DNA of 64,000 bases from an uncultured bacterium (GCA_963707865.1 OY970175.1:80748-144747), one strand, 5' to 3'; shown: positions 1,569 to 53,609, counted from the first letter of the stretch. Made by a program: numbers and translations. The notes: generated by a model not told the origin, from the sequence alone.

Positions 1569-2249
1569 ATGAGCAAGGAAATCCTTAAAATCATAAGGAA
1601 ATTGCGGCTAGAAAGGGGATTCTCGCAGGCGGCCATTGCTAAAAAATTAGGCATTTCGCGGGTTTCGTACATCGCTACGGAGCATGGGAAAAGGGAGTTA
1701 ACACTCGCCGAGGCACAGAAGCTCGCGGCAATTTTTGGCGCGAACCTGGACGAGATGGAGCGCGGGATCGCGCCGGATTATGACAAGTATAAAGAGATGA
1801 TCATTGCGTATCTGCGCGCAGATGATAGCGACGGCAAATTGCCAAAGACCAAACTCGCAAAGCTTCTTTATCTTGCTGACTTCGGCTGGTTCTACAAGCA
1901 TCTCATAAGCATGAGCGGCATGCCCTATCGAAAGTTCCAGTACGGTCCGGTTCCCGATATGTACTTCCGGGCAATTGACGAGCTCCAAGAGGAAGGAAGG
2001 ATAAATATTGTGCAGCACGATGAGGCCTCGTTGATTTTAGAAGGGGCCGGATCCAAAAATCAAAGGTTGGAGAAGCTGGATAAAAATGAAAAAGCTTTTA
2101 TTGGAGAAATCGCGAAGAGGTGGAGGGGCAAGCGGACGGGAGAAATAGTCGCATTTACCCATAATCAACTCCCGTATAAATTGAGCGCGGATAACGAGAT
2201 AATCCCGTACGAGCTCATCACGCAGGAGGATCCGGACCATGTCTACTGA
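1569..2249 (+). CDS. HTH (XRE family) - Panacea/DUF4065 domain protein (PanA/SocA-like antitoxin)
   Basis: The N-terminus is an XRE helix-turn-helix (LERGFSQAAIAKKLGISRVSYIATEHG). The middle has the Panacea/DUF4065 signature KLAKLLYLADFGW...FQYGPVPD. The last 11 nt overlap the next ORF. Confidence 0.75.
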   Translation: MSKEILKIIRKLRLERGFSQAAIAKKLGISRVSYIATEHGKRELTLAEAQKLAAIFGANLDEMERGIAPDYDKYKEMIIAYLRADDSDGKLPKTKLAKLLYLADFGWFYKHLISMSGMPYRKFQYGPVPDMYFRAIDELQEEGRINIVQHDEASLILEGAGSKNQRLEKLDKNEKAFIGEIAKRWRGKRTGEIVAFTHNQLPYKLSADNEIIPYELITQEDPDHVY

Positions 2250-2631
2250 TTATGGGATCGTTGTTGAACCATTTGCAGAGCGGCACTTCATAAAATCTTT
2301 CGCGAAGAAATATAAAGGCGCGTGGGATATTACCTGGCAGGCCATTGAGGCGGAGTTCAGGCATTTCGATGCGCTCTTTGAAACTTCCATCGCGGAGACG
2401 ATTGTTGATTCTCCGAGCGTAAAGATCTGCAAAACTGAATTCCGGGTGGCCGGAACCAAGGAATCGCGGCATGGGTCCGGTTGCCGTACGATCGTGGCAA
2501 TGGACAAGGGGACCAATATCGTGCACGTGCTCTTGGTGTATTGTAAGGGCGATCTGAAGGACGGGAATGAGACGGCGGCGTGGAAGCGGGTGGTGAGAGA
2601 TAATTATCCGAAGTATAGGGGACTGCTTTGA
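2239..2631 (+). CDS. Hypothetical 130-aa protein, candidate toxin partner of the Panacea antitoxin
   Basis: Overlaps the upstream HTH-Panacea gene by 11 nt and the downstream RM gene by 4 nt, so it is translationally coupled. Its C-terminal half (FRVAGTKESRHGSGCRTIVAMDKGTNIVHVLLVYCKGD) is rich in beta strands and reminiscent of the RelE/ParE fold, but no confident family match could be made by eye. Confidence 0.5.
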   Translation: MSTDYGIVVEPFAERHFIKSFAKKYKGAWDITWQAIEAEFRHFDALFETSIAETIVDSPSVKICKTEFRVAGTKESRHGSGCRTIVAMDKGTNIVHVLLVYCKGDLKDGNETAAWKRVVRDNYPKYRGLL

Positions 2632-4937
2632 AAATAAGGCAAAAACGGCGTAGGATTTTAGAAAGATTTAATCCTATGGACGTAGCGATTGCAAAGGAGA
2701 AAATCGCAGCCCTCGTTGCGAAATATAATGCCGAGGCTGTTTCTGATAAGTTGGGACGTTACAGCGAAGAAGATGTTAAAAACGCTTTTATTAAGCCGCT
2801 GTTCGAAGCTCTTGGCTGGGATATTGAGAATCGCGATGAGACCTCTGCGGAGGAACATATTAAATTCGCCGGAAGGGCTGATTACGGTTTTTACCTGAAT
2901 GGTCGCCCGAAATTTTACCTTGAAACAAAGAAGGTATCAGCTGACCTAAATAATCCTGAGTTTGCTAATCAAGCTGTTCGCTATGCGTGGAACAAAGGTA
3001 TTACCTGGGCAGTACTTACCAATTTTAAGGGTTTGAAAATTTTTAATGCTCAAGATATCAAGCGATCACTTGCAGATAAACTTTTTAAGGATATTAAACA
3101 CACGGAATACCTTTCACGCCTAGATGAACTCCTACTCCTTTCTCGGGAAGCTTTCGCGGAAAACCTATTGGATAAAGAAGCTGCAAAAGTAGGGAAAATT
3201 TATCTTCGGGTTCCCGTAGGCGACAAGCTTTATAAAGACCTAGATGAATGCCGAGCCAAGCTTACAAATGCTTTGCTCAAGTGCAACCCCGAACTGAAAA
3301 AGAATCATGATCTTCTTGATGAGGGCGTGCAGAAATTACTGGATCGTCTTATCTTTCTCCGCGTCGCCGAAGATCGCAATGTCGAGCCAAACATTTTAAG
3401 AATTCTTCTACGCGAAGCACAATCAACCCGCAAAGGGGAAATGTCGCTATATCAAGCGATGACAGAGAAATTTCGGGAACTTGACAAGGTTTACGACTCC
3501 AATCTTTTTTCGGAACATCCTTTTGAAAATTGGGATGAATATGATGGCGCTACGGAAAAAGTGATTGAAAAACTGTACGGAGAAAAGGGATACTATGAAT
3601 ATGATTTCAAGTTGATGCCAGCCGATGTTTTGGGCACCGTCTATGAGCATTATCTTGGCTACCGGCTTTCAAAAACAAAACCAGACAAGCGGAAATTGAT
3701 TCAAAGCAGCGGTGTAGAGCTCAGTAAGGATTCCAAGAAACGCAAGGAGCAGGGGATTTATTATACACCAACATTCGTTGTGGATTATATCGTTCGCCAC
3801 GCTTTGCAGCCAGTGCTTGATAAATGTAAAACATATCAAGACTTGATAAATGTAAAAGTTTTGGATCCTGCGTGTGGCTCTGGCTCTTTTCTTTTGAAAG
3901 CGCTTGAAGTCTTTAATGAAAAATATAAGGAGCTTGGGCAGAAAGGGGATGAGGATACTAAGCGCATTATTTTGAGCTGTAATTTATATGGCGTTGATCT
4001 TGACGAAAAAGCCGTAGAGATCGCAAGATTGAATTTACTCATAAATTCGCTTGATAGAAAAGAAGTTTTGCCTACGCCGAATATTAAATGTGGTAATTCG
4101 CTTATTTCCGGATCTGCTGAGGATCTTAAAAAATATTTTGGGGAAAATTGGAGGGAAAAGAAGCCGTTTAACTGGGAAGAAGAATTTTCTGAGATATTTA
4201 AAAACGGGGGATTTGATGTGGTGATTGGGAATCCGCCCTACGTGGTTTTAGAGGCAAGCGATGACCATTTATCATTTTTGAGAGATAACTATAAATCTTC
4301 ACAAGGGGGCAAAGTTAATCTATATAAGGCGTTTATCGAGCGAGGCATTGCCTTACTCAAAAGTGGCGGTCATCTCGGCTTCATCTGCCCTAGCAATTAT
4401 TTGTCGAGTAGCGATAGTAAGACCCTGAGAGAATTATTACTGAAGGAGACTAATTTAATTGAGATAATTGAATATTCTGAAAAAGATAAAGTTTTTGACG
4501 GTGTCACACAGGCTCTAACTACGATTATTTTCGAGAAGAGTAAAATGCATGCAAGTCAACTAGTCCATCTTGTAACAAAGAAGTATGGAGATGCAATTGT
4601 CGCCCAAGACAATCTACTTGAAGGTGAGGGCTATGAGTTTGTTGTTGAAAATAAAGCAATTAAAAAAATTGGCGATGCGAAATTAAGAATTTCCGATTTA
4701 TGCGAAGGATATCAGGGGGAGATCAATGTTAGTACAAAAAAAGAATTTTTTATACACGGGGCAAGAAGCAATTATCTGCCCCTACTTCGAGGTAATCAAA
4801 TTTTTAGATACCAACTCATTCCCTCTGATGAGTTTTGCCCAATTAGTATAGATAAAAGGGGGCACTGGAAAAGCCCACGCATTGTTTTACAAGAAGTTTC
4901 TAATCAGCAACAAGATAGAAGAATCAAGGGCGTTTGT
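2628..4937 (+). pseudogene. Type IIG/IIL single-chain restriction-modification enzyme, N-terminal 770 aa (Mrr-like PD-(D/E)XK nuclease + gamma-class N6-adenine methyltransferase), truncated by IS insertion
   Basis: N-terminal nuclease motif GRADYGFY...FYLETKK (D...ExK). Methyltransferase motifs GIYYTPTFVVDYIV, VLDPACGSGSFL (FxGxG, motif I) and VIGNPPYV (NPPY, motif IV). The reading frame runs into IS sequence after ...RIKG at about 4930 and terminates at 4967. The gene is AT-rich. Confidence 0.7.
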
Positions 4938-5959
4938 TTCATGTCCGCACATTTGTCCCCTCGATAGCTTGAAGATATTCAACCGGCGTCTTTCCCGCAA
5001 GGGCAAGATGAGGACAGACCGTGTTGTACCAGGCGCAGTACGCGGCCTGTTTTTGTTTCGCTTCGGCCACCGTGCGGAATGATATCTTGTTCCAGAACCG
5101 TTCGCGGTCATTGCGATGCGACCGCTCCACCTTGCCGTTCTGCGCAGGATGCCCCGGGGCGATGAGATAGTGCGTCATTTTTTGTTTTTCACAAGTAACA
5201 TCAAAAGGATGCAACCGCGGCTTCAGGGGATCTGCTGACTTCGGATATCCCACGTACCGGTTCGTGAAGATTGATCCGTTATCGGTCTTCACCGCACGGA
5301 TGCGGAAGGGTGCCGTAGCAATGACTTTCTCGAGAAACAAGATCGCGGTCCGCGTGGATTGTTCTTGGGTCACCCAGAGATGCCGCCACCGCGTGCAGCA
5401 ATCAATCGCGGTGAACTGGTAGAGCCATTGCCCCTTGAATCTCCGCACATAAACGACATCAATCTCGATGATCTCTCCGGGAAACGTGGCGGTCGGTTTC
5501 CACTTTGCTTTGGGCACCAACCGTTTTTTGGTTCTTGAGAGCCCCTCACGTTTCAGGACTTTGGCAATACCCCGCACGGAGAGCTTCAGGCCCTCGCGGG
5601 CGAGGAGATACATGAGGACATCAGGACCCAGATCCGTTGCTGTTCGCAACGATCTGATCCGATTCACGATGGTCTGTGAGAATTGTTTCGGATGCGTGTG
5701 CGGCCTGCGCGAGTGCGACACGAGCGCATCGATCCCGCCCCTGCGATATGCCGCCACCCACCGCTTGAGCGTGCGATATGAAAACGGCGCGTGGGCAGCA
5801 ATGTCCTTGATACTCATCTCTTTCTCAAGATGCGGGGTGATCCACCGCATCCGTTCCTCTGCTGCGTCTTTTGCGAGTGTTTGTGGCATATTCCCCAGCT
5901 TACACTTCAAGGGGCCATATGTATGTGCAGAGTACCCGTTCCTATTGACAGTGGGTTTC
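4938..5959 (-). mobile_element. IS481-family insertion sequence (~1.02 kb) inserted into the RM gene
   Basis: Carries a single DDE (rve-type) transposase ORF. Its GC is much higher than the surrounding AT-rich RM gene. The flanking RM fragments rejoin in frame if a putative 5-bp target-site duplication TTTGT (4933-4937 and 5960-5964) is collapsed. Imperfect terminal repeats share GCACAT...CCCCT. The boundaries are approximate, +/-10 bp. Confidence 0.6.
4939..5889 (-). CDS. IS481-family DDE transposase (integrase core domain)
   Basis: N-terminal HTH region, then integrase-core motifs (...TAIDCCTRW..., ...KTDNGSIFT..., ...APGHPAQNGKVERSHR...). The likely start is the ATG at 5889 (MPQTLAKD...), inside the longer track ORF 4939..6003. 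Confidence 0.75.
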   Translation of the reverse strand: MPQTLAKDAAEERMRWITPHLEKEMSIKDIAAHAPFSYRTLKRWVAAYRRGGIDALVSHSRRPHTHPKQFSQTIVNRIRSLRTATDLGPDVLMYLLAREGLKLSVRGIAKVLKREGLSRTKKRLVPKAKWKPTATFPGEIIEIDVVYVRRFKGQWLYQFTAIDCCTRWRHLWVTQEQSTRTAILFLEKVIATAPFRIRAVKTDNGSIFTNRYVGYPKSADPLKPRLHPFDVTCEKQKMTHYLIAPGHPAQNGKVERSHRNDRERFWNKISFRTVAEAKQKQAAYCAWYNTVCPHLALAGKTPVEYLQAIEGTNVRT

Positions 5960-6357
5960 TTTGTGGCCACACCACGAATTATGTTTTTCCCAAAGACAAA
6001 CACGCAGATATTTATTATTTGTTGGGGCTATTAAACAGTCGGGTGGTTGATTATTACTTTAAATATTTTAATAACACAAACCACGTTCCCATAGGAGAAC
6101 TGAAAGATATTCCCGTTCCGAAGACAACCAAAAAGGAACAAGATGTTATAGGGAATTTAGCAAAAATAATGGTTGAGCTACATCAAAAATGCGATAGCGT
6201 CAAAGAGAATTCAAATGGATGGAAAATTCTAAAAATTGAGATCGAAAAAACTGACAGAAAAATTGACGAAGAAATTTATAAATTATATAGCCTCAATCAA
6301 GAAGAAATGAAAACAATAGAGGGAGACTCAGAATCTTTAATCAAGCGGTCCAAATAG
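5960..6357 (+). pseudogene. C-terminal fragment (~130 aa) of the disrupted type IIG RM enzyme
   Basis: HTTNYVFPKDKHADIYYLLGLLNSRVVDYYF...IGELKDIPVP...EEIYKLYSLNQEEMKTIE is the characteristic C-terminal region of type IIG / gamma-MTase enzymes. It is AT-rich like the N-terminal fragment. Confidence 0.55.
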
Positions 6358-18169: not shown

Positions 18170-18332
18170 CTGGTAGAAGTTCTCATATTATCCTAAAAGA
18201 TGTTCCTTTTGGGCGTTTTTCTTAACCGGCCGCGCCGAGGCGGCGCGGCCCCGACCAAGTCCCCGCTGGTCTTTTACCAGCGGGGCACATTCTTTTCAAT
18301 GCTTGCGAATCGGTTTACAATGTGAAATATCT

Positions 18333-21268
<2,936 letters not shown>

Positions 21269-21269
<1 letters not shown>

Positions 21270-33708: not shown

Positions 33709-36114
33709 ATGCTCGGCTTTTATATATTCATCTCCGTCGTCCTTTGCGCCATCGCGGGCACGGCGATCTATTTTATTTTTCGCTCGCTCGCGCGGCGAAG
33801 GATAGCACTGTCCTTAAGCACCTCAGTTTTTCTTATAAAAATTCCGAAGCCGGCTGCGGGATCGGAGGTTTCTCCGGGAAGCTCGGAGAACAAGGACTTC
33901 AAGGCAGAACTCGCGCACTTTGAGCAGCTTTTGGGAAGCTTGGCGGCGATCAAGAAACCGTTCACGTTTGAGGTCGCCGTGCCGCACGTGGGTGAAGAGA
34001 TCCACTTTTACCTCGCAGTGCCGAAACTGTCTTCGGAAGTGGCTGCGAAACAGGTCTTGGGACTGTGGAGCGGCGCTTCGGTCACGCAGGTGACGGATGA
34101 TTTCAACATTTTTAACCCGCACGGCGAGGCGGTGGCGGCATATGTGAAGCAGAAAGAGCATTACGGCCTTCCCATACGGACCTATAACGAGCTTGGCATT
34201 GATTCATTTGAACCGATCGTGGGCGCGCTCACGAAGATAAATGAGATTGGCGAGGGGGCGGCGGTGCAGGTCATCATGCAACCCGCGCCCGCGGGGACGA
34301 AGAAGGAAGTGCAGCACGCGATTGAGCGTTTGAAGAAGGGCGAGCCGTTCAAGAAAGTATTTCGGAGCGACTTTGTGCGTTCGTTCTCCGAGGCGGGGGA
34401 GGTTTTGAATCCGAAAACCAAGGAGAAAAAGATGGAGGAGAAGCAGGAGCGCGTGGTAGACGAAGAGGCGGCGAAGGCACTCCAGGCGAAGATCATGAAG
34501 CCGCTTTTCTTTGTAAACGTGCGGCTCGTCGCCTCGGCGGGGTCACCATTTCAGGCGAATGACATTTTGGACGGGCTTGCCGCCGGATTCAGCCAGTTCG
34601 GGAGCCCTACGCGGAATGATCTCCGGGTGATAAAACCGCGGAATCCAGACAAACTCATCCGCAAATTCATCTTCCGCGAGTTTGACGCGTCGCAATCCAT
34701 GACGCTTTCGAGTGAAGAGATCGCAAGCTTTTATCATTTGCCGATTTCGTCCACCGAGACGCCGCATGTGAAGTGGCTTAAATCAAAGGAAGCGCCGCCT
34801 CCGGAAAACCTCTCCAAGCAAGGAGCGCTCCTCGGTTACAGCAATTTCCGCGGGGAGTCCAGGCCTATTTACATCACGGACGAGGACCGGCGCCGCCACA
34901 TCTACGTGATTGGTCAGACCGGCACCGGAAAGACCACGGAAATTTCAAGCATGTTAATTGATGACATCCAGGCAGGCAAAGGCGTCGCAATCATTGACCC
35001 GCACGGCGAGTTCGCGGAAAAAGCGCTCGCCAAGATTCCGAAGGAACGCGTTGAGGACGTGATCTATTTTGACCCGGGCGACCTCGCGCGGCCCATGGGC
35101 ATCAACATGCTTGATTACAATTTCAGCCGCCCCGAAGAAAAAACGTTCATCGTGAACGAGCTTCTCGGCATCTTTGACAAATTGTACGACCTGAAGACCA
35201 CGGGCGGTCCGATGTTTGAACTCTATATGCGCAACGCCCTCCTTCTTCTCATGGAAGACATGCCGAACGAGGAGGCGACCCTGATTGAAGTGCCCCGCAT
35301 TTTCACGGACACCGCGTACCGCGTGCGGAAACTTGAACGCATCCATAATCCCACCGTCATTGATTTCTGGGAAAAGGAAGCGATAAAAACGAGCGGCGAG
35401 CAGTCGCTCGCCAACATGGCGGTGTACGTGAGCTCAAAGTTCACCGCCTTCATCTCTAACGACTACATGCGGCCGATCATCGGCCAGCCGAAATCGGCGT
35501 TCAATTTCCGCGATGTGATGGATAACGGGAAGATTTTGCTCATCAACCTTTCAAAAGGAAAAATAGGAGACATCAATTCCAACCTTCTCGGCATGATCTT
35601 CATTGGGAAGATTCTGATGGCGGCCCTCTCGCGCGTGGAGATCGCCGACGAATCAAAGCGCCGCGACTTTTATCTCTATATTGATGAGTTTCAGAACTTC
35701 GCCACCGACGCGGTCGCGACTATCCTCTCCGAAGCGCGCAAATATCATTTAAGTTTGACGATGGCGCACCAGTTCATCGCGCAGCTCAAGGAGAATATCC
35801 GCGACGCCGTCTTCGGGAATGTGGGAACCCAACTTGTGATGCGCGTGGGGCCGCAGGACGCGGAGTTCCTTGTGAAGCAATTTGAGCCGGTATTCAACAA
35901 GAACGACCTTATTAGTATTGATAATCTGAACGCGTTTGTGCGGCTTCTTGTGAATGGTCAGACCTCGCGCCCGTTCAATATGAAGATGAACACGTCGTCG
36001 TGGGCGCCGGGCAATGCCGAACTTGCCGTGAAGCTCAAGGAATACTCGCGTGTAAAATTCGGGCAGGACAGGCAGGTGGTAGAGGACGAGATCTATCGGC
36101 GCCTGCGGGAGTAA
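33709..36114 (+). CDS. TraD/VirD4/TrwB-like coupling-protein ATPase (FtsK/HerA superfamily) with N-terminal TM helix and long unassigned middle region
   Basis: Walker A YVIGQTGTGKTT, Walker B FYLYIDEFQNF, and LTMAHQFIAQL. There is an N-terminal TM helix. About 330 aa before the ATPase have no recognisable motif. Confidence 0.6.
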   Translation: MLGFYIFISVVLCAIAGTAIYFIFRSLARRRIALSLSTSVFLIKIPKPAAGSEVSPGSSENKDFKAELAHFEQLLGSLAAIKKPFTFEVAVPHVGEEIHFYLAVPKLSSEVAAKQVLGLWSGASVTQVTDDFNIFNPHGEAVAAYVKQKEHYGLPIRTYNELGIDSFEPIVGALTKINEIGEGAAVQVIMQPAPAGTKKEVQHAIERLKKGEPFKKVFRSDFVRSFSEAGEVLNPKTKEKKMEEKQERVVDEEAAKALQAKIMKPLFFVNVRLVASAGSPFQANDILDGLAAGFSQFGSPTRNDLRVIKPRNPDKLIRKFIFREFDASQSMTLSSEEIASFYHLPISSTETPHVKWLKSKEAPPPENLSKQGALLGYSNFRGESRPIYITDEDRRRHIYVIGQTGTGKTTEISSMLIDDIQAGKGVAIIDPHGEFAEKALAKIPKERVEDVIYFDPGDLARPMGINMLDYNFSRPEEKTFIVNELLGIFDKLYDLKTTGGPMFELYMRNALLLLMEDMPNEEATLIEVPRIFTDTAYRVRKLERIHNPTVIDFWEKEAIKTSGEQSLANMAVYVSSKFTAFISNDYMRPIIGQPKSAFNFRDVMDNGKILLINLSKGKIGDINSNLLGMIFIGKILMAALSRVEIADESKRRDFYLYIDEFQNFATDAVATILSEARKYHLSLTMAHQFIAQLKENIRDAVFGNVGTQLVMRVGPQDAEFLVKQFEPVFNKNDLISIDNLNAFVRLLVNGQTSRPFNMKMNTSSWAPGNAELAVKLKEYSRVKFGQDRQVVEDEIYRRLRE

Positions 36115-39422: not shown

Positions 39423-39544
39423 TTCTACGTCCTCCCATAGGGTCTCATTTAATAAGGTTCCAATTGCAATAGTAAGCCAACGTTTCGTGTTGTCAAAGCG
39501 GGGGAATGGCGTTTTTGCGCGCGGCGTGGTATAGTAGTGTTTGG

Positions 39545-39977
39545 CAATCCAGACGGTCGCTCGGCTGCGTCGCGCAAGCGGCGCTAGCTGGGAGGAAAGT
39601 CCGGACACCCTCCAGCCGTAGTTTCTTTGAAACTACAGCTGGATAAAACGGTAGCGGCTAACAGCCGCACGGCGAAAGCCGAGAGGTGCGATCAGTGACG
39701 CCCCGTTCCGAAAGGTTCGGGGGAGCCCGATCCCAAGCTAGATGGCTCAACTCCGCGATAGGGACAAAAAAGTGGAGGTGAAACGGCAAAACCCTTACTG
39801 GGTGCAAGGCCGCGTCCAGCCGTAATTGCGAGAGCAATTACAGCTGGGAGTGCCGCACGAGCCCGCGAGCAATCAAGGGCCCAGAGAAATGACCGTCCCT
39901 CCGTCCAGCCGTAATTTAAAAAATTACGGCTGGGCTGGGCGACAGAATCCGGCTTACGGATTGCCAGCAACATAAAG
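39545..39977 (+). ncRNA. rnpB: RNase P RNA (bacterial type A-like)
   Basis: P4 strands GGGAGGAAAGTCCGGAC and ACAGAATCCGGCTTA. P1 pairing is TTGGCAATCC with GGATTGCCAG. P3 is CGTCGC-GCAA-GCGGCG. A GCAA-looped hairpin plus T-run terminator sits at 39973-40000. Confidence 0.8.
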
Positions 39978-43554: not shown

Positions 43555-45003
43555 ATGAGAACGCCCGTTGCCGAAATTGTAAAGCACGAAGGAAAGGAGG
43601 TGGAACTTTTTGGCTGGGTACACGCGCGCCGCGACCACGGGAAACTTGTGTTTGTTGACCTCCGCGACCGGAGCGGATTGGCACAGGTAGTCTTCGGGCC
43701 GGGGATTAAAAGCGCTTCCGATCTACGCTTGGAGTACGTGGTCCGCGTGAAAGGCGAGGTCAAAAAGCGCCCGCCCGCGATGGTGAACGATAAGCTCCCG
43801 ACCGGCCACTACGAGGTGAGCGCGAAGGAATTAGAGATTTTGAATCCTGCGGAGCCGCTGCCGTTCCCGATAGACGATGCCGGATATGAGATCAACGAAG
43901 AGATTCGTTTGAAGTATCGTTATCTGGATTTGCGGCGCGAACGGCTCCAAAAGAATCTGATCGTGCGGCATAAGGTTATCACGTTCATCCGCGATTTCCT
44001 CGCAAAAAAAGGGTTTACTGAGATTGAGACCCCCGTGCTTTCAAAGTCAACGCCCGAAGGCGCGCGCGATTATCTTGTGCCATCCCGCATTGATAAGGGG
44101 TATTTTTACGCACTGCCGCAATCGCCGCAGCAATACAAGCAGCTGCTGATGGTGGCGGGCATGGAGAAATATTTCCAGATCGTGCGGTGTTTCCGCGACG
44201 AGGACACGCGCGGCGACCGCCAGCCGGAATTCACACAGCTGGATCTGGAGATGAGCTTCGTGACACAAGAGGATATCTTGAGTCTTACCGAAGAACTCTA
44301 TCTCAGTACGGTGAAGGAACTTTTCCCCGAGAAACACGTGAGCATGTTGGATGTTCGCGGCAAAATTCCTCGATTGAAATACAAAGACGTAATGGCAGAG
44401 CATCGCTCCGACAAGCCGGATTTGCGCAAAAACAAGAATGATCCAAACGAACTTGCCTTCGCGTTCATCACGGATTTCCCGATGTTCGAAAAGAAAGGCG
44501 ATGGATCGCTCGGCGCCGTGCATCACCCGTTCACTTTGCCTTCCACCGATACGTCGCTGGATCCCACGAGGTTCCAGCACAAAGATTATCCGGAGTATCA
44601 GGCATTGATGAAGATGCTGGACTCTGAAAAAGAATCGCTCACACTCTCGGCATACCAATACGACTTTGTTTGTAATGGCTACGAGATCGGCGGCGGTTCC
44701 ATCCGTATCTACAACCAGGAGCTTTTGGCAAGGGTATTCGAGCGGCTCGGCAACAAGCTGGAAGACGTGCGCCGCGACTTCGGCCACATGCTTGAAGCGT
44801 TCACCTACGGCGTTCCACCGCATGGCGGCATTGCGCCGGGGATTGACCGCTTCATCATGGTCCTGCAAAACGAGCCGAACATCCGCGAGGTCATCGCGTT
44901 CCCAAAAACCGGCGACGGCCGCGATCCAATGATGGGCTCTCCCTCCGAGGTGGACAAAGCGCAGCTCGATGAATTAGGATTGGAAATTAAGAAAAAGAAA
45001 TGA
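43555..45003 (+). CDS. aspS: Aspartyl-tRNA synthetase (short, archaeal/ND-type length)
   Basis: An N-terminal OB fold (ELFGWVHARRDHGKLVFVDLRD) and class II motifs (FRDEDTRGDRQPEFTQLD, GGGSIRI, GIDR). Confidence 0.9.
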   Translation: MRTPVAEIVKHEGKEVELFGWVHARRDHGKLVFVDLRDRSGLAQVVFGPGIKSASDLRLEYVVRVKGEVKKRPPAMVNDKLPTGHYEVSAKELEILNPAEPLPFPIDDAGYEINEEIRLKYRYLDLRRERLQKNLIVRHKVITFIRDFLAKKGFTEIETPVLSKSTPEGARDYLVPSRIDKGYFYALPQSPQQYKQLLMVAGMEKYFQIVRCFRDEDTRGDRQPEFTQLDLEMSFVTQEDILSLTEELYLSTVKELFPEKHVSMLDVRGKIPRLKYKDVMAEHRSDKPDLRKNKNDPNELAFAFITDFPMFEKKGDGSLGAVHHPFTLPSTDTSLDPTRFQHKDYPEYQALMKMLDSEKESLTLSAYQYDFVCNGYEIGGGSIRIYNQELLARVFERLGNKLEDVRRDFGHMLEAFTYGVPPHGGIAPGIDRFIMVLQNEPNIREVIAFPKTGDGRDPMMGSPSEVDKAQLDELGLEIKKKK

Positions 45004-46070
45004 AAGATCTGGAATTTCCCATTTTTAAAACTAAGGTTCAGGGAGTCACTAAAGAATTCAACTTGAACGACCTGGACGAGCGCCGCGAATACTTTTTGCT
45101 GAAAGCGGGCGAGGAAATTGCGGCGATCAAGAAGCACCTGGAAAGCGGAAAGGCCTTTGTGGCGTATCTTTTAGGAAAGAAAAATTCCGGGAAAGGGACG
45201 TACTCCAAGCTTTTCATGGAAGCGGTAGGCAACACCCACGTCGGCCACATTGCGGTGGGGGATATCGTCCGGGACGTGCACGCGGGACTTTCGGATCCGG
45301 CAAAGAAAAACGACCTTTCCAAGTTCTTGGAAAAGCATTATCGCGGCTTTCACTCATTGGAAGAAATAGATGGGTTGATCGAGGGGCGGAGCCAGTCCAC
45401 GCTCGTTTCCACCGAGCTCATCATCGCTCTTTTGAAATACGAGGTGAGCAAGCGGCCGCGGCAGGCACTCTTTATTGACGGGTTCCCGCGCGGGCTGGAC
45501 CAGGTCAATTATTCCATCTTTTTGAGGGAACTTTTGGGGTACCATGGCGAACCGGACTTCTTCGTGTTCATTGATGTTCCGAACACCGTCATTGACGAGC
45601 GCATCAAAACGCGCGTGGTGTGCCCCATTTGCAAGGTTCCCCGCAATACAAAATTGGCTCCCACGAAAGAGATCGGCTACGACGAAACGAAAAAGGTGTT
45701 TTATCTAAGGTGCGATACTCCGTCGTGCCACGGAGCGCGGATGTTGCCAAAGGAGGGCGATGAACTTGGGATTGAGCCGATCCGCGCCCGCTTGGAGGCC
45801 GACGAGAAAATATTCCGGCAGCTCTTCACGCTCACCGGCGTTCCAAAGGTGTTCCTAAGAAACTCGGTGCCGGTGGACAAGGCGGCCGATTTTGTGGACG
45901 ACTATGAAATCACTCCCGTGTACGGCTACGAGAGGGATGAGAAAACGAAGAAGATCAAAATTATTGAGACCCCTTGGATCATCGACGACGACGGGGTGCC
46001 TTCCTACAGTTTGTTGCCCGCGCCCGTTGCGCTGTCGCTCGTGAAGCAAGTTGCAAAAATTCTTGCATGA
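45000..46070 (+). CDS. Adenylate kinase family protein with N/C extensions and enlarged Zn-LID
   Basis: P-loop GKKNSGKGT, GDIVRD, FIDGFPRGLDQ, and a LID with CPICK...CDTPSCHG. At 356 aa it is much longer than the usual ~215. Confidence 0.6.
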   Translation: MKDLEFPIFKTKVQGVTKEFNLNDLDERREYFLLKAGEEIAAIKKHLESGKAFVAYLLGKKNSGKGTYSKLFMEAVGNTHVGHIAVGDIVRDVHAGLSDPAKKNDLSKFLEKHYRGFHSLEEIDGLIEGRSQSTLVSTELIIALLKYEVSKRPRQALFIDGFPRGLDQVNYSIFLRELLGYHGEPDFFVFIDVPNTVIDERIKTRVVCPICKVPRNTKLAPTKEIGYDETKKVFYLRCDTPSCHGARMLPKEGDELGIEPIRARLEADEKIFRQLFTLTGVPKVFLRNSVPVDKAADFVDDYEITPVYGYERDEKTKKIKIIETPWIIDDDGVPSYSLLPAPVALSLVKQVAKILA

Positions 46071-46598: not shown

Positions 46599-46715
46599 GG
46601 GCATCTCGGAGCCACGGCGGCTTGACCCAGCACCACTTTTGCTTTGCAAAAGTGGTGCTGGGTGCCGTGGCGAGAGCGAGGCGCATTTCCCCGCTGGAGG
46701 AAATGATGCCGTCCC

Positions 46716-47462
46716 TTACGAGCGTTCTTGCGGCGGGAGCCCTTTCGCGAACGCAGCGACGATGGGGTCCATATCGCCGTCCAGGATCTTTAGAATGTTG
46801 TGCCACTTCTTCCCGAGGCGGTGGTCAGTGATGCGATCGTCGGGGAAATTATAGGTGCGGATCTTTTCCGAGCGGTCGGCGGTGCCGACCTGCTCCCGGC
46901 GGAGGTCGGTTACGGAGCCTACCGCTTTGTGCTGTTCCATTTCGTATAGTTTCGCGCGGAGAACATCCATCGCTTTCTCGCGGTTCGCGTACTGTGAGCG
47001 CTCCTCGCGCGAAGAAACGACAATACCGGTTGGCTTGTGAAGAATCCGCACGGCAGTCTCCACCTTGTTTACGTTCTGTCCTCCCGGGCCACCCGCGCGC
47101 GAAAAGGTCACTTCAAGGTCGCTTGGCGCAATGTTCACCTCGCGCGCTTCCACAATTGGTAACACGGCCACCGAAGCGGTGGAGGTGTGCACGCGGCCGG
47201 ATTTTTCCGTTGCCGGGATCCGTTGCACGCGGTGTACGCCTGATTCGTTCCGAAGCGCCTCGTAGCACCCCGCGCCTCGCACTTCGGCCACGAGCGACTT
47301 GAACCCCTGGAGCGAAGTTGCGTTCGAGTCAAGCACGGAAAATGCCCAGCCCCGTTTTACGACATAGCGTTGGTACATGCGCGCCAGGTCACCCGCGAAA
47401 ATCGCGGCCTCATCGCCGCCCGCGCCAGCCCGTATTTCCAGGATGATCTTTCCCGTCGTCAT
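46716..47462 (-). CDS. prfA: Peptide chain release factor 1 lacking N-terminal domain 1 (249 aa)
   Basis: RIPATE (PxT codon-recognition motif of RF1), GGQ ([29 protein letters not shown]). It begins at the equivalent of E. coli RF1 residue ~110 ([13 protein letters not shown]). The in-frame upstream stretch is only 37 aa and low-complexity. Confidence 0.75.
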
Positions 47463-47493
47463 TGTTTTGTATGATATAATATATAGTACATCA

Positions 47494-47883
47494 ATGACAG
47501 GGCAACCGTTCGTGCTTATTGTTGACGACGAAGCGGACTTTCGCGAGATTTTCGGAACCAAACTTTCTGCCATGGGTTATCGTGTGGCTACCGCGGAGGA
47601 CGGACAGGCGGCGCTCCTTAAAATGGCGAAAGAAAAACCGGATCTCGTCCTTATGGACGTCAAGATGCCGACAATGGATGGGGCGACCGCGGTGCTCAAA
47701 ATGAAAGAAGACCCGGCACTGAAAGACATCAAAGTGGCGTTTCTTACGAGCTTGGGCGATCCGCGCCTTGATGTGCAGGATATCAGCCGAAAGTTTTCCG
47801 AAGAATTCGGCGCACAGGGATACCTCAAAAAGACCGACGACCTTGACGTGCTTGCGGAAAAGATAAAGGCGCTGCTTCCATGA
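47494..47883 (+). CDS. Response regulator, receiver domain only (CheY-like)
   Basis: VLIVDDE, the phospho-acceptor D in LMDVKMP, and conserved T/K positions. A TATAAT sits 14 nt upstream of the ATG. Confidence 0.8.
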
Positions 47884-48278
47884 GGGAAAGGCCGCTTGTC
47901 CTCATTGTTGACGACGAGCACGATCTTCTTGAAATTATGTCTGTGAAGCTTCGGGCGTCCGGCTTTGATCCGGTGGTGGCCTACAATGCCAAAGAAGGAA
48001 TTGACGCCGCAACGAAGTTGCATCCCGACCTTGTTCTTATGGACATCCATATGCCCGGCGGGGAGACTGGCACCGACGCGGCGCTTGCGATCAAGCAGAA
48101 TCCGGAAACAAAAGACACAAGAATCGCGTTTCTGAGCAACCTGAAAGATCCGTGGCCCACGACCCTGGGCGACCGTGACAAGCTCGCGAAGGAATTGGGA
48201 ATGGAGGATTACATTGATAAAACCGCGGACCTGAATGTGATCGTGGCAAGGGTACGGGAAGTGCTTGGGAAAAAGTGA
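47880..48278 (+). CDS. Response regulator, receiver domain only (second)
   Basis: VLIVDDEHD and LVLMDIHMPG. ATGA overlap with the upstream receiver gene. Confidence 0.8.
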   Translation: MRERPLVLIVDDEHDLLEIMSVKLRASGFDPVVAYNAKEGIDAATKLHPDLVLMDIHMPGGETGTDAALAIKQNPETKDTRIAFLSNLKDPWPTTLGDRDKLAKELGMEDYIDKTADLNVIVARVREVLGKK

Positions 48279-49045: not shown

Positions 49046-49801
49046 ATGAGCGCTGATATTGATGAGCTTCGTAAAAAACTGGAAGAGGACAACAGGAAGC
49101 TCAAGGACCTGAACCACTTCAAGACGCATCTTCTCGCGCTCACGTCGCATCAGATGAAGACGCCCCTAGGCATCATCCGCGGCTACACGGCGCTCTTGCG
49201 CGACGGCTATTACGGTGAGATAGACAATCGTGCGAGAGAGGTCATCGCAAAAATTGAGTTTGCGGCCGAAGACCTCGTGAACCTTGTGGACAACGTGATA
49301 GATCTCCGCAAGATTGAGGAGGGGAGAGTTGAATACCAGATGCAGGACACTGATTTTGTAAGGCTTGCGCGGCAGGCGGCGGAGGAACTGGGCCATCTTG
49401 CGTCAAGCAAGGGCCTGAATTTGGAATTCCAGGCGCCGCAGAAAGAGATTGTGATTTATGGCGACGAGCAAAAACTGCAGCACGTTATAAAAAATTTGAT
49501 TGACAACGCAGTGAAGTACACCGAAAAAGGTTTTGTAAAGGTGAGCGTGGAAGAGAGGGACGGCAATGTCATGCTTTCGGTCGCGGATTCCGGGATCGGC
49601 ATTCCGAAAGGAGTCCAGCCGTTTTTGTTTGGGGAGTTCGTCCGCGACGAGCGCGTGAAGCGCGAGATCCGCGGCAGCGGCTTGGGCCTCCACGTCGCGA
49701 AGATGTTTGTAGAAGCCCATGAAGGAAAAATTTCGGCATCCTCCGAAGGCGAGGGTAAGGGCTCTGTATTTTCGTTCAGTATTCCGAAAGTAAGGAAGTA
49801 G
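49046..49801 (+). CDS. Sensor histidine kinase (cytoplasmic, coiled-coil N-terminus)
   Basis: H-box LTSHQMKTPL, N-box NLIDNAVKYT, and G-boxes DSGIGIP, GSGLGL. Confidence 0.8.
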   Translation: MSADIDELRKKLEEDNRKLKDLNHFKTHLLALTSHQMKTPLGIIRGYTALLRDGYYGEIDNRAREVIAKIEFAAEDLVNLVDNVIDLRKIEEGRVEYQMQDTDFVRLARQAAEELGHLASSKGLNLEFQAPQKEIVIYGDEQKLQHVIKNLIDNAVKYTEKGFVKVSVEERDGNVMLSVADSGIGIPKGVQPFLFGEFVRDERVKREIRGSGLGLHVAKMFVEAHEGKISASSEGEGKGSVFSFSIPKVRK

Positions 49802-52461: not shown

Positions 52462-52533
52462 GCCGGAGTAGCTCAATGGCAGAGCAATGCTTTCGTAAAG
52501 CAGAGGTTGGAGGTTCGACTCCTCTCTCCGGCT
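52462..52533 (+). tRNA. tRNA-Thr (anticodon CGT)
   Basis: Cloverleaf: acceptor GCCGGAG/CTCCGGC, anticodon loop TTCGTAA, T-loop TTCGACT. Confidence 0.75.
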
Positions 52534-52558
52534 CAAAGTCGAAAGTTTATTACTAAAC

Positions 52559-53609
52559 ATGAAAGAAGACATCAGACAGGAATTGCAGGAACTTGCGACC
52601 GATGCCCGCCGGTTAGGCGGGCGGCTTTGACCTGGCCGCAAAGGAAAAAAGAATAAAGGAGTTGGAGGCCGAGATGGCCGACGGAGCGTTTTGGAAGAAT
52701 CGTGCGGCGGCGGACGAAAAAATCCGCGAGCTTGGGATCTTAAACGAACTCGTCGCGCAATACCACGACATTGAAAATGGCATCGCGGCGCTCACAACTG
52801 CGACAGGGGTCGACAATTTTGACGAAGCGAAATTTTACGAACTGAAAAAGAAGTTCAAGGAATTTGAACTGAAGCGGCTGTTTACCGGGCGCTATGACGT
52901 ACAGGCGGCAGTGCTCGCGGTTTATCCCGGCGCGGGCGGCGAGGATGCAGAGGACTGGGCACGGATGTTGGGCGTTATGTACGAAAATTATGCAAAGCGC
53001 CGCGGATGGAAACTGCGGGTGATTGATGACAACATCCGCTCGCGGACAGTGGAAATAAAAGGGGATTACGCTTATGGATATTTAAAGAAAGAATCCGGTG
53101 TCCACCGCCTTGTGCGTATCTCGCCGTTCTCGCCGAAAAAACTGCGGCACACGTCGTTCGCGCTCGTGGAAGTAATTCCGGATTTGCCGCCGCTTGAAGA
53201 ATCAAAACTGCAGGTCCCGGAAAAGGATCTTAAGTTTGAATTCTATCGCTCGGGCGGTCCGGGGGGACAGAACGTGAACAAGGTGGAGACGGCGGTGCGC
53301 GTAGTGCATCTCCCGACCGGACTCACCGTGAGTTCGCAAGCGCAGCGCGCACAGGCGCAGAACCGCGAATATGCGCTCAAACTCCTCAAAGCGAAGCTTT
53401 TCAATCTGATGGAGAAGGAAAAGGTGAGCGAGATCGGCGCGTTGCGCGTGAAGGTAAAACCCGAGTGGGGGAACCAGCTCCGTTCATACGTGCTGAACCC
53501 TTACCAGATGGTGAAGGATCACCGCACGGAGGCGGAAACGGCGAAAGTGGACGCAGTGCTCGCGGGCGACTTGGACCTGTTCATTGAAGCAGAGCTTGAA
53601 ATGTTATAG
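52559..53609 (+). CDS. prfB: Peptide chain release factor 2 with programmed +1 frameshift
   Basis: Frame 0 is ATG 52559 ... CTT TGA (52625-52630), and the +1 frame continues from GAC 52629 into the 52662..53609 ORF. The SPF motif (RISPFSP) and GGQ are present. An SD-like AGGCGGG precedes the CTT TGA C shift site. Confidence 0.85.

Follow-up and report, generated by a model that had tools for sequence, protein, structure and literature searches.

The 64-kb window analyzed here, the whole stretch of 64,000 nucleotides from an uncultured, ultra-small bacterium of the Patescibacteria (CPR) (GCA_963707865.1, OY970175.1:80748-144747), carries on its minus strand a short gene for release factor 1 (RF1) from which the entire N-terminal domain 1 is missing. 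The gene lies between a NUDIX gene and a divergent response regulator gene, and the gene for RF2 is found in the same window. The features concerned, with positions counted from the first letter of the window, are the following.

46599 to 46715, no strand: convergent intergenic region that separates the NUDIX gene from the RF1 stop codon, with a long perfect hairpin (RNA fold of -71.4 kcal/mol, z = -7.6)
46716 to 47462, minus strand: coding sequence of the domain-1-less RF1, 248 amino acids plus a TAA stop codon; domains 2, 3, and 4 only, matched by the prfA models, with a start that is kept in homologues
47076 to 47084, minus strand: GGQ catalytic motif of domain 3 (Gly127-Gly128-Gln129), invariant in an alignment of 24 homologues (alignment A1)
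47208 to 47216, minus strand: PxT "peptide anticodon," Pro83-Ala84-Thr85 (PAT; RIPATE forms residues 81 to 86), the RF1-specific determinant for UAG and UAA
47408 to 47423, minus strand: GGDEA motif, residues ~14 to 18, placed by alignment to the RF1 proteins of T. maritima, T. thermophilus, and E. coli
47463 to 47493, no strand: AT-rich divergent intergenic region of 31 bp between two start codons, with promoter-like -10 elements on both strands
47463 to 47579, minus strand: in-frame upstream stretch of 38 sense codons followed by TAA (47577 to 47579); not protein, and mostly antisense to the response regulator coding sequence
47494 to 47883, plus strand: stand-alone receiver-domain response regulator, divergent, with its ATG at 47494; a neighbor of the short RF1 gene in relatives too
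52559 to 53609, plus strand: prfB (RF2), 349 amino acids, domain 1 kept, ending in TAG; matches positions 2 to 352 of the 353 in the prfB model at 362.8 bits

The longest ATG-to-stop open reading frame at the locus runs from 46716 to 47573 (minus strand; 285 amino acids), and similarity to RF1 begins not at this most upstream ATG but at the internal ATG at 47462. A preliminary description of the locus had given the length of the product as 249 amino acids. The short RF1 itself stands, but the protein has 248 residues, the figure of 249 having counted the stop codon. In Pfam searches, the 37 extra residues of the 285-residue frame added no match to the PCRF domain. We rejected the upstream start at 47573, as the segment that it would add has no homology, is antisense to the response regulator gene, and is not conserved. 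The same description had reported 37 upstream codons followed by a stop and had taken this stretch for the promoter of the divergent gene. The stop is there, after 38 codons; the promoter assignment is right in part, since the gap between the two genes is 31 bp and the stretch also overlaps the response regulator coding sequence. With an in-frame TAA, a divergent gene 31 bp away, and no PCRF similarity upstream, a longer N terminus is indeed impossible, as had been claimed. A promoter-like TTGCCC-16-TATATT element with its end at 47478 lies on the minus strand and, judged by its match to the consensus, would place a putative transcript start ~8 nucleotides before the ATG at 47462. At the other end of the gene, the hairpin at 46599 to 46715 has a perfect CCCAGCACCACTTTTGC / GCAAAAGTGGTGCTGGG core and no T-run, and it is probably a bidirectional terminator.

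Canonical RF1 and RF2 consist of four domains. We compared the short protein with profiles of several release factor families, as the preliminary description had proposed. The two prfA models scored highest (NF001859, 356.5 bits against a cutoff of 400; TIGR00019, 347.8 bits at model positions 113 to 347 of 361 against a cutoff of 423.25), followed by those for prfB (236.4 bits), prfH (79.3 bits), and ArfB (54.3 bits). Both prfA scores fall below the curated cutoffs, since nothing in the protein matches the first ~110 model positions. In Pfam, the RF-1 domain is complete and PCRF is covered only at profile positions 101 to 194 of 194. The protein thus has the best-scoring model and the PxT and GGQ motifs of an RF1, in agreement with the RF1-type assignment made earlier, while the four-domain architecture and a score at the equivalog level are lacking. 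It has neither the SPF motif nor the internal stop by which an RF2 is recognized, and it is the one PxT-type gene within the 64-kb window. A protein identical to it exists in a public collection (P0001).

Searches with phmmer against PDB sequences aligned the protein to each solved RF1 in a single colinear stretch with few gaps, covering residues 86 to 319 of 342 in T. maritima, 107 to 341 of 354 in T. thermophilus, and 112 to 342 of 360 in E. coli. Query residue 7 pairs with E. coli residue 112, residue 6 with T. thermophilus residue 107, and residue 4 with T. maritima residue 86. Together with the prfA model match from position 113, this bears out the earlier statement that the protein starts at the equivalent of E. 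coli RF1 residue ~110; the start falls at ~106 to 110, and ~105 N-terminal residues are absent. From the colinear alignment and the presence of PxT, GGQ, and GGDE, we conclude that the protein is an RF1 with domains 2, 3, and 4 only and that it starts with the first strand of domain 2.

The shared part is 42 to 49% identical to the solved RF1 proteins and is laid out like the canonical factor (TIGR00019/NF001859), with PxT, the GGDE tip, GGQ, the switch-loop/RTYNFP region, and domains 2, 3, and 4 in colinear order. Unlike canonical RF1, it is without the ~105-residue domain 1, including the LLLPKDPND linker, and the context of its GGQ differs from the usual GGQHVN. The GGDEA motif lies ~13 residues from the N terminus. 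From RF1-ribosome structures, we take this motif to be the tip of helix alpha5, which in canonical RF1 reads U1 of the stop codon. In alignment A1, G15, G16, and E18 are invariant, as are P83 and T85, while the middle position of the PxT motif varies among A, K, S, R, and T. The presumed function of the short RF1, judging from these sequence features, is termination at UAA and UAG. An AlphaFold2 model built from a 24-sequence alignment had a pLDDT of 64.6, with residues 182 to 226 below 50, and its resemblance to RF1 and RF2 chains is limited to the general release factor fold in a compact conformation.

The short form is not confined to this genome. We searched 5.8 billion proteins and considered the best 120 clusters among at least 8,000 candidates. 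All of these 120 homologue clusters were 79 to 100% identical to the query and 231 to 253 amino acids long (the 231-residue one is labeled partial). They came from NCBI, ENA, JGI, and Logan assemblies, several of them from single contigs of 0.5 to 0.9 Mb, and where named they were "PCRF domain-containing protein" (PGAP) of Minisyncoccia, Paceibacterota, or Patescibacteria. In the 24 homologues of alignment A1, the start is conserved, GGQ is invariant, and mean column identity is 82%. Against four orthologues, dN/dS was 0.065 to 0.13, with dS near saturation. The short RF1 is under strong purifying selection.

In at least 13 GTDB species genomes (L004 to L016; 63 to 82% identity), the region before GxGGxE is likewise strongly reduced, with an in-frame upstream stop at varying distances. 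These genomes take in Jorgensenbacteria and Liptonbacteria metagenome-assembled genomes and a complete 829-kb chromosome (OY970354.1). Further short forms among the matches listed are L020 (56%) and L034 (45%). Many of the short metagenomic hits among the 50%-identity representatives still carry the LLLPKDPND linker and are gene fragments; they were left out of these counts. Two relatives have N termini of another kind. In L017 (2448 to 3332), a 64-residue N terminus matches only positions 10 to 49 of a domain 1 profile, that is, the first helices, and in L016 (~4880 to 5711) the N terminus consists of ~32 residues of unrelated low-complexity sequence. Full-length RF1 occurs in the Patescibacteria L019, L022, and L024, and the closest full-length RF1 among 50%-identity representatives is 59% identical. 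The N termini of L016 and L017 look like snapshots of stepwise domain loss. The comparison with related CPR genomes suggested in the preliminary description thus shows a conserved short form alongside partly reduced and full-length relatives, and the missing domain 1 characterizes a whole lineage, a large clade of Patescibacteria, instead of being an oddity of this genome. In a neighbor-joining tree, the main short clade together with P0122 had a bootstrap value of 88/100. Its sister group was recovered in only 30/100 replicates, and the placement of the other short forms, L020, L034, P0124, and P0127, in at most 20/100; the position of L016 and L017 relative to the main clade was weakly supported as well. 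An earlier inference that domain 1 was lost twice or more, independently, has been dropped, as this support is too low.

These data also bear on the possibility that the gene is an artifact or a pseudogene, a 5'-truncated remnant or a product of misassembly or of a frameshift that hides the N terminus. The unusual length, and nothing else, speaks for such an origin, which we regard as effectively refuted. The same architecture recurs in independent NCBI, ENA, JGI, and Logan assemblies, including the single contigs of 0.5 to 0.9 Mb; dN/dS is 0.07 to 0.13, and the catalytic and decoding motifs are all invariant; and upstream, where a conserved divergent gene takes up the space, no frame shows similarity to domain 1. 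In particular, a sequencing or assembly error as the source of the upstream stop, which the preliminary description had named as a potential refutation, is excluded by the same start in 120 of the best 120 clusters and in at least 13 GTDB genomes.

The gene order around the short RF1 is conserved too. A divergent response regulator lies next to the short RF1 gene also in L001, L002/L003, L004, L005, and L013, and the recurring gene order is response regulator(s), divergent, then short RF1, NUDIX gene, and, further on, AspRS. In L002, L003, and L015, rpmE is upstream of the short RF1 gene, and rpmE-prfA adjacency is typical of other bacteria. The prmC gene, adjacent to prfA in L021, L025, and L036, is not adjacent to the short RF1 gene. 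Some further observations concern the neighbors themselves. In the window, a second response regulator (47880 to 48278, plus strand) stands in tandem behind the first, with overlapping stop and start codons; such tandem response regulators are divergent from the short RF1 gene in L001, L004, L005, and L013, and a histidine kinase lies near the tandem pair in the window (49046 to 49801). A protein of 356 residues (45000 to 46070, plus strand) has weak, partial similarity to adenylate kinase (TIGR01351, 66 bits against a cutoff of 168) with long extensions, and it is conserved beside AspRS in L001.

Could the short protein instead be a specialized rescue or quality control paralogue of the PrfH or ArfB kind, with a four-domain prfA elsewhere in the genome carrying out termination? 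The notion has a precedent, as PrfH is a known release factor paralogue without domain 1 (PMC1586002; matched here through PDB 9mor), and it would fit both the scores below the prfA equivalog cutoff and the fact that our view covers 64 kb of a genome of ~0.9 Mb. The short RF1 also shares with PrfH/RF-H (TIGR03072) the retained GGQ and a similar length (PrfH, ~200 to 230 residues). Unlike PrfH, however, it reaches only 79.3 bits in the prfH model (cutoff, 166.65) and 52 bits with PDB 9mor, against 348 to 356 bits in the prfA models, and its PxT and GGDE motifs are canonical, intact, and conserved. The decoding motifs of PrfH are altered, and its gene always follows an RtcB-like one (PMC1586002); at the short RF1 locus there is no RtcB-like gene upstream, its place being taken by the divergent response regulator (in the window as well as in L001 to L005 and L013), with the NUDIX gene as the other neighbor. 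A similar contrast holds for ArfB (YaeJ) and the mitochondrial ICT1 and C12orf65, which are likewise GGQ proteins missing parts of the class I release factor architecture. ArfB consists of the GGQ domain alone with a basic C-terminal tail, ~140 residues in all. The short RF1 keeps domains 2 and 4, both of which are missing from ArfB, ICT1, and C12orf65 with their basic tails, and the ArfB model matches only its residues 106 to 141 (54.3 bits; cutoff, 100). The half-length and vestigial relatives, moreover, fall near the short clade and do not form a separate paralogue family, and the rpmE-prfA type of synteny persists in L002, L003, and L015. On this evidence, a specialized paralogue is an unlikely explanation, and we favor an orthologue of prfA.

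An RF1 activity has to be present, given how stop codons are used. The 55 confidently sized genes in the window end in TAA (22 genes), TGA (21 genes), or TAG (12 genes, including prfB), and none of the five tRNAs in the 64 kb has a CUA anticodon. UAG is therefore a genuine stop codon. RF2 cannot read UAG, and since UAG is used as a stop, RF1 activity is needed in this organism. We also considered a TAG suppressor tRNA or reassignment of the codon and rejected it, as the window contains no CUA tRNA and the prfB product reaches the end of its model just before the TAG. Because prfB ends in TAG, the synthesis of RF2 depends on RF1.

The RF2 gene itself was described earlier as full-length with its frameshift, and this holds: the reconstructed product has 349 residues, its N terminus is matched by the domain 1 profile, and a programmed +1 frameshift site, CTT TGA C, lies at 52625 to 52631. 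The site reads GGCGGGCGG-CTT-TGA-C (region 52462 to 52634, plus strand), with a weak Shine-Dalgarno-like element, and a tRNA-Thr(CGU) ends 25 nucleotides ahead of the prfB start codon. RF1 and RF2 of this genome are 39% identical overall, yet a segment of 17 residues around GGQ (~47076 to 47126, minus strand, and ~53240 to 53290, plus strand) is identical in both, with a nucleotide identity of 0.87 over 45 nucleotides. The shared segment has an atypical GGQ-N in place of the usual GGQ-H. Coevolution with the peptidyl-transferase center or PrmC is possible, as is an old gene conversion. A recent conversion is unconvincing at a nucleotide identity of 0.87 that drops sharply on either side.

We then looked for a domain 1 encoded apart from RF1, using a profile built from the N termini of 58 canonical RF1 proteins. 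In controls, the profile found full-length RF1 proteins with E values of 1e-34 to 1e-10, the half domain of L017 with 4e-4, and RF2 with ~1e-3. Across all frames of the 64-kb window, it matched nothing except the N terminus of RF2, and no separate domain 1 was found in the flanks (~±5 kb) of 19 short or intermediate loci. The window also contains no genes for RF3, L11, or PrmC, and tblastn with approximate E. coli queries for L11, RF3, and PrmC matched neither the window nor the regions flanking short RF1 genes.

The function of domain 1 might also be supplied in trans, by a split gene or a new partner, or the L11/GTPase-associated center might have coevolved with the loss. RF2 of the same genome keeps its domain 1, which means that the ribosome still has room for one, and CPR ribosomes are unusual in their missing proteins and truncated rRNAs (PMC11665869); both facts count in favor of such compensation. 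The profile search argues against it in the window and the short RF1 flanks, as does the lack of a conserved translation-related neighbor. In addition, the published deletions, as recounted in PMC1586002, show that RF1 releases the peptide without any substitute for the domain. We consider compensation in trans improbable, even more so than a specialized paralogue.

The short gene is thus likely to be the organism's prfA orthologue, with domain 1 lost by reductive evolution and the product acting as a working RF1 without contact to RF3 or L11. In E. coli, RF1 touches the L11 stalk through its N-terminal helical bundle, which RF3-driven recycling also requires. Domains 2 and 4, which form the decoding superdomain and carry the GGDE tip and PxT, are retained in the 248-residue product, as are domain 3 with its GGQ and the region of the switch loop. 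Such a three-domain factor would read UAA and UAG in the A site through PxT and the GGDE tip, GGQ would enter the peptidyl-transferase center, and peptidyl-tRNA would be hydrolyzed as by canonical RF1. The short RF1 would then leave the ribosome spontaneously, without the helical bundle. RF3 is presumably absent from this reduced-genome lineage. The role of domain 1 as a handle for RF3 would then have become useless in RF1, and the domain could for that reason have been whittled away.

Published work on release factors fits this reading in several respects. Domain 1 is the least conserved release factor domain (Baranov et al. 2006, PMC1586002), and prfC is absent from small genomes (PMC1586002). 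The nearest precedent for how the natural short RF1 should work, by analogy, is the engineered truncation of E. coli RF1 and RF2 to domains 2 to 4 (Mora, Zavialov, Ehrenberg & Buckingham 2003, Mol Microbiol 50:1467). As that study is summarized in PMC1586002, codon-specific release in vitro does not depend on domain 1, RF1 in truncated form is functional in vivo, and the stimulation of nucleotide exchange on RF3, which requires domain 1, is lost. Unlike those constructs, which were made in the laboratory and placed in an RF3-bearing host, the truncation described here is natural, fixed in a clade, under purifying selection, and restricted to RF1. The asymmetry between the two factors, with RF2 keeping domain 1, would fit the report that RF2 relies more strongly on its own domain 1. 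On the other hand, according to a reviewer comment in PMC1586002, RF1 is reported to be inactive on E. coli ribosomes that lack L11, so the loss of the domain presumed to contact L11 is not obviously neutral.

Extended to the large Patescibacteria clade (Minisyncoccia/Paceibacteria and relatives), the same reading would mean that the only RF1 in these bacteria has three domains and makes no contact with the L11 stalk or RF3, and that the loss was stepwise and specific to RF1. We lean toward this broader statement, with somewhat less confidence than for the single genome. The order of loss in the clade would have been from a full domain 1 to a half, a vestigial, and finally no domain. A bolder version would add that the stalk region of CPR ribosomes, or some partner, has coevolved to compensate.

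RF1 and RF2 are nearly universally conserved in bacteria (PMC6514570). A full-text literature search turned up no account of a CPR RF1 that naturally lacks domain 1; it gave only the paper on RF-H and a review of release factor evolution. A large bacterial group appears to terminate at UAG and UAA with a three-domain RF1, which adds a translation factor to the known reduction of the translation apparatus in CPR. A natural, fixed, and selected RF1 of this kind implies that RF1, at least, can do without domain 1 in vivo on an evolutionary time scale. It raises the question of what domain 1 does without RF3 and why RF1 and RF2 differ in their dependence on domain 1 and L11. If the clade-wide reading is true, domain 1 would be an accessory "RF3/L11 handle" needed differently by the two factors, and structural studies and cell-free systems would have in the short protein a minimal RF1 that is already at hand. 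There may be practical consequences as well. TIGR00019 is among the GTDB bacterial marker proteins (PMC12281837), and since the short proteins score below the prfA cutoffs, genomes that encode them may be scored as lacking prfA. A prfA missed in this way could affect completeness estimates, marker-based phylogeny, and RF1-based screens for stop codon reassignment (for the method, see PMC8629427).

The window has some other features of note. The leucyl-tRNA synthetase (988 amino acids; 18303 to 21269, plus strand) is unusual in that a NUDIX domain (Pfam, residues 394 to 512) has been inserted or fused into it behind the editing domain. The region from 1569 to 6003 contains an HTH plus SocA/Panacea antitoxin-like protein (1569 to 2249), a type IIG Eco57I/MmeI-like restriction-modification enzyme (2628 to 4967), and an IS481-type DDE transposase (4939 to 6003, minus strand), and it is likely a mobile or defense islet. 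The bacterial class A RNase P RNA (39541 to 39971, plus strand) scored 101.1 in Rfam against a gathering score of 100, which suggests a divergent RNA, as seen for other CPR RNAs. Finally, a VirD4/TraG-like coupling protein of type IV secretion (801 amino acids; 33709 to 36114, plus strand) is encoded in this small genome of ~0.9 Mb.
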